In this document: in pieces, positions 14,633 through 42,536 of the stretch
Layout: each line of letters opens with the position of its first letter
Position numbering within the stretch: the first letter of the stretch is position 1
Assembly: GCA_037305845.1 (NCBI GenBank)
Contig: CP147778.1
Location: forward strand, 768,001-832,000
DNA length: 64,000 bases
From: Candidatus Freyarchaeum deiterrae
Lineage (GTDB): Archaea; Asgardarchaeota; Jordiarchaeia; Jordiarchaeales; Jordiarchaeaceae
Direction of reading: 5' to 3'
The notes under the pieces: model-generated
The model's input: only the letters and a program-made list of their open reading frames with translations
Told to the model about the DNA's origin: nothing
Databases searched by the model: none
Program-made: the position numbers and the translations under genes

Positions 14633-15763
14633 ATGTATTATTTGGAGTGTGCTGTTTGCAAAAAGCGGATAGAAAATGAGTCGATTCTATGCCCGGACTG
14701 CGGAGGGCCCATCCAAGTATACTATGATTATGACTCGATGCGGCTGAGCCGTGAAGATTTTCAAGGCAGAACCATCTGGAGATACCGCCAACTGCTTCCT
14801 TTCGAAAAAATTACACGTCTCGTAACCCTCAATGAAGGGTACACGCCTCTACAGAGAAGCGATATCATCGGAGACGACTTGGCTCTAGACCTGTGGTATA
14901 AGCTTGAAATACATAACCCCACAGGTAGTTTCAAGGATAGGGGAAGCGCCGTGGAACTCACTAAGGCTCTGGAAAGAGAAGCAAAATCAATTGTGTGTGC
15001 TTCGACGGGAAACATGGCCTCCAGTGTGTCCGCCTATTCTGCAAAGGCGGGGCTAAAGTGTAAAATAGTTGTTCCTAGGAACGCGCCTGTAACCAAGATA
15101 ACCATGATGGAACTCTATGGTGCCGAAGTAGAGTTTGTAGACGGCGGATTCGACGAAGCGGTAGACACGGCCATGGAGTACGCAAAGGATCCGAGTGTAC
15201 TTTTTGCGGGTGACTATTACTGGAGACGAGAAGGTCAGAAAACCATAGCCTTCGAGATATTTGAAGAATTAGCTAATGTGGATTGGGTTGTGGTTCCTGT
15301 TGGTTCTGGGGTGCTTCTTTCAGCTCTCTACAAAGGATTTTGGGAACTGAAAAAATTGAAGCTCATGGACAGAATTCCCCGCATGGTTGGTGTTCAGGCT
15401 GAGGGATGTAGCCCGGTGACCCAAGCGTGGAAAGGGGATAGATTTCAGAAGTGGAAAGAATCACATACCCTAGCAAGCGCAATAGAGGTTTTGAACGCCT
15501 TTGACGCACCCCTAGCTTTGGAAGCGGCGAGAGAAAGTGGGGGTGAAATTATTTCTGTCTCTGATAAAGAAATTATGGAATCCCTAGTGGATCTCGCCCG
15601 CAGGGAAGGAGTTTTTGTTGAACCTGGCGCTGCGGCTTCAATAGCGGGGGTGCTAAAGGAATGGAAAAAGTTTGATGGAAGAGTCGTATGTGTATTGACA
15701 GGCTATGGGCTCAATGATTTCCAGACGGTTAAAGACTACCTTGAAGGAAAACTCAAATTGTAG
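14633..15763 (+). CDS. thrC: Threonine synthase (PLP fold II)
   Basis: N-terminal CxxC..CxxC, EGYTPL, NPTGSFKDRG, ASTGN, EGQKT, PVGSG. Confidence 0.88.
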   Translation: MYYLECAVCKKRIENESILCPDCGGPIQVYYDYDSMRLSREDFQGRTIWRYRQLLPFEKITRLVTLNEGYTPLQRSDIIGDDLALDLWYKLEIHNPTGSFKDRGSAVELTKALEREAKSIVCASTGNMASSVSAYSAKAGLKCKIVVPRNAPVTKITMMELYGAEVEFVDGGFDEAVDTAMEYAKDPSVLFAGDYYWRREGQKTIAFEIFEELANVDWVVVPVGSGVLLSALYKGFWELKKLKLMDRIPRMVGVQAEGCSPVTQAWKGDRFQKWKESHTLASAIEVLNAFDAPLALEAARESGGEIISVSDKEIMESLVDLARREGVFVEPGAAASIAGVLKEWKKFDGRVVCVLTGYGLNDFQTVKDYLEGKLKL

Positions 15764-15913
15764 TCTTACCCAACTTTTTTGATTGAACTATTTTGGAAGA
15801 TTTTGAAGTAGATATCTTTTTAGGAAACTATACAACCGTTATTTGAAATTCAATATCTATAAGTTGTTTATACTTCCATAATTTTATGGAAAAAAGGTAC
15901 AGAAACATTTTGA

Positions 15914-16612
15914 GTGATGGCAATGAGCGACTCTAATATTCTCGAGCTAGAGAATGTTGGTAAAGTCTACAAGACTGGAGACGTAGCCTTCGAAGCTTTG
16001 CATGAGGTTTCATTGGTGATTGAAAGAGGACGATGGGTAGCTATCCAGGGCCCCAGCGGTTCTGGAAAAAGTACGCTTCTTAACTTGATTGGTTGCCTTG
16101 ACAGACCGACTAGTGGTAGAGTACTCCTTGAAGGAATCGACATATCAAAACTAAGTGAAAACAAGCTTGCACAAATGCGAGGCGAAAAAATCGGTTTTAT
16201 TTTTCAAACGTTCAACCTGATACCCAGTCTAACAGTGACTGAGAATATTCTTCTTCCCACATCTTTTACAAGGAAACTCAAAAAAGCGGATGCCAAGCAA
16301 AGAGTTAAGGAATTAATGAACAGATTGGGAATCAATAGTTTGAAGAATCGTTTTCCAAGTAGACTCAGTGGTGGAGAAACCCAGAGAGTTGCCATTGGAA
16401 GAGCTCTCATAAACGAACCCTCACTAATATTAGCAGATGAACCAACAGGCAATTTAGACACCACAACAGGCTCAGAAATCGCGAACCTTTTCAAAGAGAT
16501 GCATGAGGAAGGCGAAACAATCATTCTAGTAACGCATGATAATGACCTGGCACGAAGGGCGGAGAAAATCTACGTTCTTCGGGACGGTAAACTGAACGTG
16601 AAAGGAGAGTGA
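15914..16612 (+). CDS. ABC transporter ATP-binding protein (LolD/MacB type)
   Basis: GPSGSGKST, LSGGE, ILADEPTGNLD, VTHD. Confidence 0.95.
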   Translation: MMAMSDSNILELENVGKVYKTGDVAFEALHEVSLVIERGRWVAIQGPSGSGKSTLLNLIGCLDRPTSGRVLLEGIDISKLSENKLAQMRGEKIGFIFQTFNLIPSLTVTENILLPTSFTRKLKKADAKQRVKELMNRLGINSLKNRFPSRLSGGETQRVAIGRALINEPSLILADEPTGNLDTTTGSEIANLFKEMHEEGETIILVTHDNDLARRAEKIYVLRDGKLNVKGE

Positions 16613-16616
16613 AACA

Positions 16617-17774
16617 GTGTCTTCGATTAAAATAGCTTTTCGAAATTTAGGAAGACGCAAAAGCCGGAACACTCTAACCATCATCGGTATAACAGTAGGA
16701 ATAGCAGCGCTAATAGCACTAATATCTCTCACTTTAGGACTAAGCGCACACATCAATAGCCAGTTCCAAAACCTCGGAGTAGATGTTTTAGTTTATCCAA
16801 CTTCTGGCAGAATTCCAAATTCCGCAGTTGGAACAATACAAGCCGACGCGGGAGTATACGCCGTAGCACCAAGAATCGACTTTGGAATGATTGCGCAGCA
16901 ACAGAATATTTCAGTTGCCTTTAATACGATTGATCCCGATGCTGAGGCTAAAATCGGATATCTAAAGCCGTTGTTGGGCGGCCTAAGTATGGGCGAGAAT
17001 GAAACAGTTTTGGGATTATCAATAGCCCAAAAACTTGGAGCAGGAATAAATAGTAACATAACATTTTTAGACCCATACCCAAACCCACTTAATCCCTCCG
17101 CTTTCAGTTTGAAGGTTGTTGGTATACTGAATCGAAGCCAAGAGTTCATTTCTTTCTCGGATAGCTTTGGATTTGTCAATGTTGCGTACGCTGGAAATAT
17201 GACCGATGTAAATGCTGGACTTTCGGCGATTTTGGTGAAATGCTGGACTAGTGATTTGTCAGCATATGTGGCCTATGAGATTCAGCAGCAGTTTCCCGAT
17301 GTTTCAGTTGTTTCTCAGTCACAAATTAGAACAGTGGTGAACGGTGTTACTGGAACCGTAAACTTCTTTCTGTATATAGCAACGGGATTAGCTCTAATAG
17401 TCAGCTGTTTGGGAACCGCGAACACTATGGCAGTGGCGGTTATTGAAAGAAGACGCGAAATAGGTATAATGAAAGCCGTTGGAGCTAAAGGCAGAAATGT
17501 AATGGGAGTATTCGTAATAGAATCTGCGCTACTCGGATTCATTGGAGGCGTTTTAGGATTAGTCATAGGATACGCTGCTGGCTATGCTGTTCAGTGGTAT
17601 GTTAATAGTGTTTTATGGTACATATCGTTTATCGCGGGATACCAGCCGGTATACGATTGGTGGATATGGCCACTCGGACTCGGAATCGCAGTTGTTATCT
17701 CACTTATCGCAGGAGCTTACCCCGCTTGGAGAGCTTCAAGACTAAAACCAGTAGAAACTCTAAGATACGAGTAA
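16617..17774 (+). CDS. ABC transporter permease (FtsX/MacB family)
   Basis: RNTLTIIGITVGI, ERRREIGIMKAVGA, YPAWRASRLKPVETLRYE. Confidence 0.93.
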   Translation: MSSIKIAFRNLGRRKSRNTLTIIGITVGIAALIALISLTLGLSAHINSQFQNLGVDVLVYPTSGRIPNSAVGTIQADAGVYAVAPRIDFGMIAQQQNISVAFNTIDPDAEAKIGYLKPLLGGLSMGENETVLGLSIAQKLGAGINSNITFLDPYPNPLNPSAFSLKVVGILNRSQEFISFSDSFGFVNVAYAGNMTDVNAGLSAILVKCWTSDLSAYVAYEIQQQFPDVSVVSQSQIRTVVNGVTGTVNFFLYIATGLALIVSCLGTANTMAVAVIERRREIGIMKAVGAKGRNVMGVFVIESALLGFIGGVLGLVIGYAAGYAVQWYVNSVLWYISFIAGYQPVYDWWIWPLGLGIAVVISLIAGAYPAWRASRLKPVETLRYE

Positions 17775-17916
17775 CCAGCGGAATTCATCAGAAAATAAGA
17801 ACGGGTGAATTCTCACAATTTTCTCTTTTTTTTGTTCTGCCTCAATTTTAAGCACATTTTTCAACTTCATTTTAAAAACAAAATTTATATATTCTAATAT
17901 CTAATCTATATAGTAA

Positions 17917-18057
17917 GCTGGGTCGGTGGAGTAAACCGAACATTGTTTCTAAAAGGTTATGCTTAATTTTTATATTAGGCTGAGGATTAGGGGAAACTCT
18001 GTGCCTCATTTTCAGAACCTTTTTGACATGTTCAGGCTTAAAGCTGACCTAGCACCA
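17917..18057 (+). ncRNA. Candidate structured ncRNA with tRNA-like terminal stem, 3' ACCA and BHB-like motif
   Basis: TTTATATA box at ~17884; 11-bp terminal stem 17917-17927/18043-18053 then ACCA; nested helices and a GAAA-capped hairpin; no ORF. Confidence 0.6.
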
Positions 18058-18076
18058 AAATCAGATTTCTTACAGT

Positions 18077-18652
18077 TTAAGTCTTTGTGAAGTGATCCAG
18101 CGTTAATTCTGGTTTGTTCTCTTTGGTTTTCTGCTTTTTTGCGGTTTTTGTTTTTGGCTTGGGTTTTTCTTCTTTAGCTTCTTTTTTTGGTTTTGTTTCT
18201 ATCTGTTTCTCTTTTCTTGGTTTCTCTTCTTTAACTTCTTTAGGAATCCGACTAGGTTTTTTGGTTTTTAAGTGTTCTATTAGTGGCTCTTTTTCTTTTT
18301 TAATTGGCTTTTCTTGTATTTGTAACTCTACCTCGTTGTATTCTATTTTGCTTCTTATTGGATATGGTTTCACGTTTGCTAGCTCCTCGTTGCCGATTTT
18401 TTTATCAAATTTGTAAAGAGGGGGAAAATTACTTTTCTCTTTGAGGGTTAGGGTTTCATTTTGTTTTTCTAAAATTTTTTCTTCAAGAGCCAGGGTGAGT
18501 ATTTTCTGAGCTGTTGATGGTGGCAGTTCCTTATGTATTCCCCAGTTGAAGGAGAGGTAGAAGCACCATCTGCTCGGACTGAGGTATTTTTCACAAGATA
18601 ATTGGAAAGGAATCTGTGAGAGAAAGAGCAGGTCTTTTTTAACTATCGGCAT
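18077..18652 (-). CDS. DUF2240-like protein with Lys/Glu-rich tail and terminal PIP-box-like motif
   Basis: N-terminal IPF...LS....FYLSFNW...P..A.KI...A pattern; tail ends ELTLDHFTKT. Confidence 0.65.
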   Translation of the reverse strand: MPIVKKDLLFLSQIPFQLSCEKYLSPSRWCFYLSFNWGIHKELPPSTAQKILTLALEEKILEKQNETLTLKEKSNFPPLYKFDKKIGNEELANVKPYPIRSKIEYNEVELQIQEKPIKKEKEPLIEHLKTKKPSRIPKEVKEEKPRKEKQIETKPKKEAKEEKPKPKTKTAKKQKTKENKPELTLDHFTKT

Positions 18653-42383: not shown

Positions 42384-42536
42384 TGGCGGCGGACTGGGGG
42401 ATTTTCGCACTCTTACAGGTACTGGAGGAGTGCATCGAACCCCGAACCCTTACCGGGTTCCACGGATTTGAAGTCCGGGGCAAGGGATTGGGCGAGGCCT
42501 CGATTTTAGGCATCTCCACCCCTGCTACAGTCCGCC
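42384..42536 (-). tRNA. selC: tRNA-Sec (anticodon UCA) with two introns (D-loop 42488-42515; T-loop 42402-42433)
   Basis: 9-bp acceptor GGCGGACTG/CAGTCCGCC + G73 + encoded CCA; 7-bp D-stem; anticodon loop CT-TCA-AA (42469-42471); long variable arm; 4-bp T-stem; removing both introns gives a 93-nt 9/4 tRNA-Sec with UGGU D-loop and UUCGAUU T-loop. Confidence 0.93.

Follow-up and report, generated by a model that had tools for sequence, protein, structure and literature searches.

A candidate stand-alone RNA gene with a relaxed BHB-like motif in Candidatus Freyarchaeum deiterrae and its relatives

Introduction

Asgard archaea are the closest known relatives of eukaryotes, and we know of no archaea with more intron-laden tRNA genes than the Freyarchaeia. 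Archaeal pre-rRNA carries processing stems with BHB motifs, and 16S and 23S rRNA pass through circular intermediates. The circularly permuted SRP RNA of Thermoproteus has termini that form a BHB, and it is circularised by the tRNA-splicing machinery (PMC4731332). tRNA introns can also release functional RNAs, as seen for the C/D box sRNA of archaeal tRNA-Trp and for metazoan tricRNAs (PMC4536317; PMC12558985). Multi-intron tRNA genes have been described in Freyarchaeia and Atabeyarchaeia (PMC11291895; preprint 10.64898/2026.10.13.758758), with introns in 92–95% of tRNA genes, many of them at non-canonical positions (PMC11291895). Cleavage of non-canonical motifs by EndA of the (αβ)2 type is described in PMC5829648 and in section 2.6 of the preprint 10.64898/2026.10.13.758758, which names the EndA substrate range as an open question.

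Here we describe an unannotated candidate RNA gene in Candidatus Freyarchaeum deiterrae, a member of the Freyarchaeia (Jordarchaeia), found in a stretch of 64,000 nucleotides (bases 768001–832000, hereafter the window) of the closed 3.58 Mb genome (G000). It lies at window positions 17917–18057 on the plus strand and would mature from a transcript of approximately 145 nt. Like the Thermoproteus SRP RNA gene it is a stand-alone ncRNA gene, whose termini would form a BHB-like motif and whose circle is predicted; whereas the Thermoproteus circle restores a recognisable SRP RNA, that of the candidate restores no known family. As with RNA-releasing tRNA introns, EndA and ligase would act on a BHB-flanked insert to give a stable and possibly circular ncRNA, with the 'exons' acting as a scaffold. 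However, the candidate is not hosted by a tRNA, ligation of its exons would leave only a 34-nt hairpin, and C, D, C' and D' boxes are absent. The tRNA introns of G000 share with the candidate A-rich 3-nt bulges, 4-bp central helices and, in some cases, relaxed motifs without a stacked outer helix. Unlike the multi-intron tRNAs, the candidate lacks a cloverleaf, an anticodon and a T loop, and at 107 nt its 'intron' exceeds in length every one of the 62 tRNA introns annotated in the genome (9–81 nt).

Results

The candidate gene is located between a gene for an FtsX/MacB-type ABC permease directly upstream (16617–17774, plus strand), with which it is syntenic in all RNA-bearing lineages, and a convergent gene on the minus strand (18077–18652, with its stop codon at 18077) that encodes a conserved, lysine-rich protein of 191 amino acids. 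This protein has no Pfam match and is present in 10 of the 11 genomes of the class; it comprises a conserved N-terminal domain of approximately 80 residues (WCFYLSFNWGIHK...), a Lys/Glu-rich linker and an invariant C-terminal ELTLDHFTK, and its C-terminus is similar to a PCNA-interacting (PIP-like) tail. A gene for a PLP-dependent enzyme is found at 14633–15763.

A BRE-like purine-rich stretch followed by a TATA box (TTTATATA, 17884–17891) occupies positions 17876–17891. The box, TTTATAT(A/G), is invariant in five of five homologous sequences, and it and the preceding A-rich stretch stand at a constant distance from the first stem of the RNA (P1); similar TATA boxes are found at the tRNA genes and at the 5S gene of the same genome. 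A second AT box, (C/T)TATATA, lies at 17906–17913, 4–11 nt 5' of P1, and is kept in all homologues; from its position we infer that it is an archaeal promoter-proximal element. Transcription would start at approximately 17914–17917, with the BRE/TATA some 33 nt upstream, and a T-rich stretch at 18066–18071, which ends the 3' tail of the gene (18054–18071), is a likely terminator.

Folding of the plus strand with RNAfold gave a minimum free energy (MFE) of -55.2 kcal/mol (z = -6.79), and none of 200 shuffled sequences was as stable, whereas the fold of the reverse strand was weaker (z = -2.13). In the MFE structure an 11-bp P1 is followed by an internal loop and then by P2 and P3, which lead to a three-way junction with the hairpins P4 and P5. 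The two strands of P1, GCTGGGTCGGT (17917–17927) and GCTGACCTAGC (18043–18053), form 11 pairs, three of which are G-U, and two pairs covary among homologues (A-U/G-C and G-U/A-U/C-G). The internal loop holds the BHB-like motif, with an unpaired G17928, GAGU (17929–17932) and the bulge AAA (17933–17935) on its 5' side (17928–17935), and the invariant GCUU (18036–18039) and the bulge AAA (18040–18042) on its 3' side (18036–18042). The 5' strand of P2 (17936–17947; CCGAACAU, then GUU), seen in the MFE structure and in homologues, faces 18025–18035, where A18034 is unpaired; here GAACAT pairs with ATGTTC, or CCGAACAU with AUGUUC-GG, and AAAAGGTT pairs with AACCTTTT. In the near-identical homologues L019 and L020 a U-A pair of P2 is replaced by C-G, a compensatory change.

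P3 is formed by AAAAGGUU (17951–17958) and AACCUUUU (18016–18023, within the combined 3' side of P2 and P3 at 18016–18035), and its counterpart in Ca. Jordarchaeum madagascariense (G002) is UAGGUG/CACCUA. P4 (17961–17980) varies in sequence and is kept as a hairpin, with the stems GCUUAAU/AUUAGGC in G000, UCUAAU/AUUAGG in the homologue L018 and CUCA/UGGG in G002. P5 (17981–18008) carries an invariant core, GAGGAUUAGGGGA-ACUCUG-GCCU, and is unchanged across at least 21 bases among the homologues, with its GNRA tetraloop (GAAA or GACA) retained. Between P5 and P3 lies a single-stranded linker (18009–18015) that is U-rich in all homologues and varies in length. All of the sequence features listed in a preliminary description of this locus were recovered in place.

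Among five congeners, BLAST and a covariance model identified a single homologue, that of G002, with 70% identity. Further homologues were sought in metagenome contigs using the neighbouring 191-residue protein as an anchor, and this search, combined with the model, recovered L018 and the pair L019/L020 (73–127 bits); covariance model scores across G002, L018, L019 and L020 were 73–169 bits. RNA-bearing lineages therefore number four independent ones, all from one genus. Synteny is constant in the homologues, the RNA lying downstream of an ABC ATPase-permease pair and converging on the 191-residue protein gene. Neither transporter nor RNA is present in G001, G004, G005 and L021, where the PLP-enzyme gene adjoins the 191-residue protein gene at a distance of about 55–60 nt; relative to these four, the ABC ATPase-permease pair and the RNA (approximately 15800–18060) constitute an indel of about 2.3 kb. 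In G003 the transporter is present and the RNA absent, and the syntenic spacer is unrelated and unstructured (z +0.5). In an Asgard sample of 151 genomes, G000 and G002 among them, none of the other 149 was matched by a refined model (R2); a motif search of 185,579 species genomes returned only Ca. J. madagascariense and one chance match in a Bacillota genome; no homologue was found in the viral contigs searched, and no paralogue within G000. Since several congeners are without it, the RNA is accessory, and it is confined to part of one genus.

In the model alignment 92.4% of the cells were paired, against at most 51% for slid controls. Five pairs had changed on both sides, and the observed covariation score was reached by 3 of 500 shuffles; with four independent lineages only, these statistics are suggestive. 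When the inner domain was folded separately, the same P3/P4/P5 junction was obtained as the MFE structure for G000, L018 and G002, although the sequences of P3 and P4 differ among them. The homologues share one order of elements, from P1 through a BHB-like loop to P2 and P3 and on to a junction whose hairpin P4 varies and whose hairpin P5 is invariant, and the structure is kept in four lineages with compensatory changes. Judged from its sequence, 17917–18057 encodes a real structured ncRNA that is conserved, has its own promoter and represents a new family.

The locus had been described at the outset as an unannotated RNA without D, anticodon or T arm, and database searches agreed with this, as expected for a novel RNA. 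ARAGORN reported no tRNA gene in the window and none in doubled copies of the predicted circles from all five sequences. Rfam 15, applied to the linear candidate, gave no match at the gathering score and none that was meaningful at E ≤ 10, the best being at chance level (21 bits, E 1.6, an unstructured snoRNA model). A tRNA or permuted tRNA was rejected on the grounds that there is no cloverleaf and no T loop, and that the loop formed after ligation, GCUUARA, has no U33. For 5S rRNA the only common element is the hexamer CCGAAC: helices I–V, loop C (CCGAAC...GGAAGUUAAGC) and loop E are not found in the candidate, and the true 5S gene, which is permuted, lies elsewhere, as do the SRP and RNase P RNA genes.

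Direct reading revealed no C or D boxes (RUGAUGA, CUGA). The G-A/A-G order of a K-turn is absent from both the P1/P2 loop and the internal loop of P5, and on inspection of its sequence the P1/P2 loop departs from the consensus of loop E and of the 11-nt receptor. A likeness to the hammerhead (CUGAGGA...GAAA) does not hold up, with GAAA becoming GACA in homologues and no room for stem II. Finally, a small ORF was discarded: every frame is broken by indels between homologues and the AUG is not conserved.

As a rule for the BHB, the four exon bases that precede the last two exon bases pair with the four intron bases that precede the last two intron bases. Applied to the 62 annotated tRNA introns of G000, this rule gave all four central pairs in 43; among the 62, most 5' bulges read AAA, AGA or GGA and most 3' bulges AAN or AGN, and a directly stacked outer helix is missing in seven. 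The tRNA annotation was taken from PMC11291895 (Supplementary Data 4, 'SRVP_Freyarchaeota_curated_circular'), whose coordinates agree with G000 (e.g. 1114536–1114631 and 1547486–1547561).

The candidate motif has two 3-nt bulges (AAA and AAA) on opposite strands, each 3' of a 4-bp helix, GAGU/GCUU (two Watson-Crick and two G-U pairs), with P2, a helix of 8–9 bp, stacked on the inner bulge, and a 107-nt intron at 17935–18041 follows from the cut rule. In the preliminary description G17928, an unpaired base that separates the 4-bp helix from the 11-bp stem, had been passed over; because of it, the 3' 'bulge' is really a 1x3 internal loop. The strict canonical BHB, in which both flanking helices stack directly, is not formed here, nor in the homologues, where a G, G or C is unpaired at the corresponding position. 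Since an unpaired base separates P1 from the central helix, the candidate motif would be classed as a relaxed, HBh'-like form. The polarity and cut positions proposed earlier for a BHB motif thus stand, given the rule drawn from the 62 tRNA introns and the permuted 5S gene described below, whereas the motif itself is relaxed and splicing with circularisation is a prediction.

The layout of 1+4+3 nucleotides on one strand and 4+3 on the other is kept without indel in all homologues, while other loops of the RNA vary in length. The corresponding motifs are GAGU-AAA/GCUU-AAG in L018, GAGA-AUA/GCUU-AGA in G002 and GGGU-UAA/GCUU-AAA in L019. The half that would be retained after cleavage (GCUU and AR) is invariant, whereas the half that would be discarded varies (GAGU, GAGA, GGGU). 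Two to three of the four central pairs are G-U among the homologues, with an A-G mismatch in G002, and the helix changes only from A-U to G-U and from U-G to A-G, which gives it no compensatory support. In L018 and L019 the MFE structure is the BHB conformer itself, which costs +1.7 kcal/mol in G000, where the MFE structure pairs UAA with UUA in place of the BHB helix, and +6.1 kcal/mol in G002; for the bona fide 5S case the cost is +1.1 kcal/mol.

A scan of G000 for stem-enclosed, BHB-flanked RNAs under loose criteria gave 48 motifs of the top class, against 36 in the shuffled genome, so that the motif is not significant by itself. Of the eight best-scoring motifs, four were folded and appeared chance-like, and no class of such RNAs emerged from the genome-wide scan. 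The BHB motif gains weight only from context and conservation. G000 encodes two EndA paralogues (in the regions 1921033–1921278 and 1733162–1733422), which would fit the permissive (αβ)2 type, together with RtcB.

The Rfam search of the closed genome detected no 5S rRNA, the best weak match covering only the 5' half of the model (a partial half-match of 17 bits when the gene was used for comparison with the candidate). The 5S gene, at 1426530–1426700 of contig C1 on the minus strand (L044:1510–1680), is circularly permuted with its break in loop C. Its order is the 3' part of loop C, the 3' strand of helix II, helices V/IV and the 3' strand of helix I, then a 2-nt linker, UC, which joins the two strands of helix I, followed by the 5' strands of helices I and II and the 5' part of loop C. 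The leader CGUCGCUG pairs with the trailer CAGCGACG, and this stem adjoins a perfect BHB (CGUG-AAA/CACG-GAA). When the gene was cut by the tRNA-intron rule and ligated in silico, the junction CCGAACACGGA|AGUUAAGC was obtained, which is loop C of the Rfam 5S consensus, and CCGAACACGGAAGU(U/C)AAGC was restored exactly. The 5S gene of G002 (L047:468–640) is arranged in the same way, and that of G009, from another family (L045:1400–1575), has a 13-bp stem and a differently registered BHB and again restores loop C. The Rfam cut-off for 5S was reached by none of the 11 genomes of the class, and several of these have two adjacent partial matches. In a search of the literature, permuted 5S rRNA turned up only for organelles (PMC4267664). 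Evidently, then, at least one small RNA with a gene of its own is matured in this lineage through cleavage at a BHB followed by circularisation.

The candidate shares the layout of the permuted 5S gene, with a TATA box, a leader/trailer helix, a BHB (with AAA/GAA bulges in 5S) and a T-run. As in archaeal pre-rRNA, the flanks pair in a long stem and the BHB lies beside the functional RNA; in pre-rRNA and 5S, EndA cleavage and ligation yield a circle and the stem is discarded, whereas for the candidate these steps are predicted only. The systems differ in that pre-rRNA and 5S genes release a known rRNA through a canonical or near-canonical BHB, while the candidate RNA falls into no known family and its motif includes G-U pairs and is offset by 1 nt. 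The 5S BHB of G000, unlike that of the candidate, has four Watson-Crick pairs and a directly stacked 8-bp helix.

Other RNA genes of this genome also proved difficult to detect. ARAGORN found 17 tRNA genes in closed G000 and the Rfam tRNA model 11. The curated list of 38 tRNAs contains none for Cys, Glu, His or Phe, and several isoacceptors are missing from it (PMC11291895, Supplementary Data 4); the absent genes must be hidden by more introns or by being split or permuted. A scan of G000 for simply permuted tRNA genes gave no match, and a scan for acceptor stems with CCA was too noisy and found no hidden tRNA. The tRNA-Sec gene at 810415–810536 (window 42415–42536, plus strand), published from a Secmarker search (PMC11291895), was missed in the window by ARAGORN and by Rfam at the gathering score. 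For SRP RNA, 361 nt (C1:1689630–1689990, minus strand) were matched to a model of 317 positions, and for RNase P RNA 389 nt (C1:1698618–1699006, plus strand) to 288 positions; both genes may carry insertions or introns.

The preliminary description had also seen the ends of the RNA as a tRNA-like minihelix with a 3' CCA. P1 is followed by ACCA (18054–18057) in G000, and since N73-CCA is encoded by nearly every tRNA gene annotated in this genome, the element looks like a local tRNA gene end. However, ACCA is unique to G000: the homologues read ACUU, ACUA/UCUU, GCCU and GCAU at this position, an absence that is informative because most tRNA genes, in G000 and among those sampled from G002, encode CCA. 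An exception is tRNA-Ala(CGC), whose G002 orthologue has no encoded CCA whereas the G000 gene does. P1 is 10, 11 or 13 bp long, rather than a fixed 12, and is bulged in G002, and the wobble pair likened to G4-U69 is G-C or A-C in other lineages. A conserved 12-bp acceptor/T stack with N73-CCA is thus not a feature of these RNAs, and conservation gives no support to the tRNA-like reading of the ends.

Discussion

BHB-dependent excision and circularisation is, we infer, the best-supported mechanism for the maturation of this RNA, with an unspliced linear RNA as its main rival. In the proposed pathway, the BRE/TATA promoter would give a transcript of approximately 145 nt whose ends pair as P1 (10–13 bp). 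EndA would cut after the second base of each bulge, at 17934|17935 and 18041|18042, and RtcB would ligate the ends of the excised RNA to a circle of about 107 nt (104–109 nt in homologues). The predicted circle junction joins 18041 to 17935 (...GUUCAGGCUUAA|ACCGAACAUUG..., that is ...GGCUUAA|ACCGAAC...), and the predicted exon junction joins 17934 to 18042 (...GGUGGAGUAA|AGCUGACCUAG..., that is ...GGAGUAA|AGCUGACC...). The circle would be a P2–P3 rod capped at one end by the invariant loop GCUUARA and bearing at the other the three-way junction with P4 and P5, while P1, like the stems of pre-rRNA, would be needed only for processing and would leave a 34-nt hairpin as by-product. The predicted circle restores no known family: the linear sequence gave no partial Rfam match, and the doubled circles contained no tRNA. 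One may speculate, from the invariant P5 and the U-rich linker, that the circle is a protein-binding scaffold. That EndA and RtcB release a circle of about 107 nt from this stand-alone RNA gene seems to us nearly, though not quite, an even proposition. More tentatively, Freyarchaeia may encode a dedicated gene for a circular ncRNA of about 107 nt and of a new family, made by the tRNA-splicing endonuclease and ligase with a disposable processing stem as its only 'exons'.

It is possible, if rather doubtful, that the linear, unspliced RNA of approximately 145 nt is the functional form, with the conserved 8x7-nt internal loop that separates P1 from P2 serving to bind a protein or to make a tertiary contact. 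Such a role would suit a loop that is kept in sequence (GGAG-UAAA/GGCUUAAA) beyond mere shape, in which the central 'helix' is without compensatory change, the canonical BHB is broken by one extra unpaired base and the MFE structure of G000 prefers the UAA/UUA pairing; BHB-like motifs of this quality also occur near background frequency. It leaves unexplained, however, why the loop has the 4-bp/3-nt/3-nt spacing and the A-rich bulges of real splice sites of the same genome, and why only the half that splicing would retain is invariant, and the loop, as inspected in sequence, misfits the K-turn, loop E and 11-nt receptor consensus.

Three further readings place the element in another context. 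A minihelix made of a tRNA-like acceptor/T stem with a functional CCA, acting as a maturation scaffold recognised by RNase P, tRNase Z, the CCA-adding enzyme or a synthetase, is improbable: the 11-bp stem followed by ACCA in G000, the N73-CCA that nearly all its tRNA genes likewise encode and a loose similarity of the first 16 nt to the 5' part of a tRNA (GGUGGAGU) speak for it, but ACCA is missing from all four other sequences even though most sampled G002 tRNA genes encode CCA, neither the length of P1, with its bulge in G002, nor the G-U at pair 4 is conserved, and both ARAGORN and the Rfam tRNA model were negative for the linear sequence and the doubled circle. We consider it very improbable that the element acts in cis, on either the ABC-transporter operon or the convergent 191-residue protein gene, as a structured 3' UTR, a stabiliser or a terminator. 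The conserved BRE/TATA and proximal AT box at a fixed distance from P1 argue against such a role, as do the transporter without RNA in G003, the weak fold of the minus strand and the fact that T-runs suffice for termination in archaea, whereas the constant position of the RNA, 130–145 nt downstream of the permease stop codon on the same strand, and its absence wherever the ABC cassette is absent would be in keeping with it. Least probable of all is a decayed tRNA gene or attachment-site remnant at the edge of the ABC-cassette insertion of about 2.3 kb. The RNA does lie at the right edge of the indel relative to G001, G004, G005 and L021, and has tRNA-like ends in G000, but at about 70% identity the promoter is conserved, an internal hairpin is invariant and pairs change in a compensatory way, all of which points to purifying selection on the RNA; there are no tRNA core elements, an integrase is absent, and neither a second copy nor a direct repeat of the end was detected.

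If release by EndA and RtcB is true, the reach of the splicing endonuclease in Freyarchaeia would extend beyond tRNA and rRNA, and a further natural circular ncRNA would be added to those described. Should the motif go unused, the finding would reduce to a narrowly distributed orphan sRNA. The candidate would be a compact substrate for gauging how relaxed a BHB the EndA of this organism accepts. Together with the permuted, BHB-flanked 5S gene of the class, a circular product would make the splicing machinery a general route to small RNAs in an Asgard lineage.
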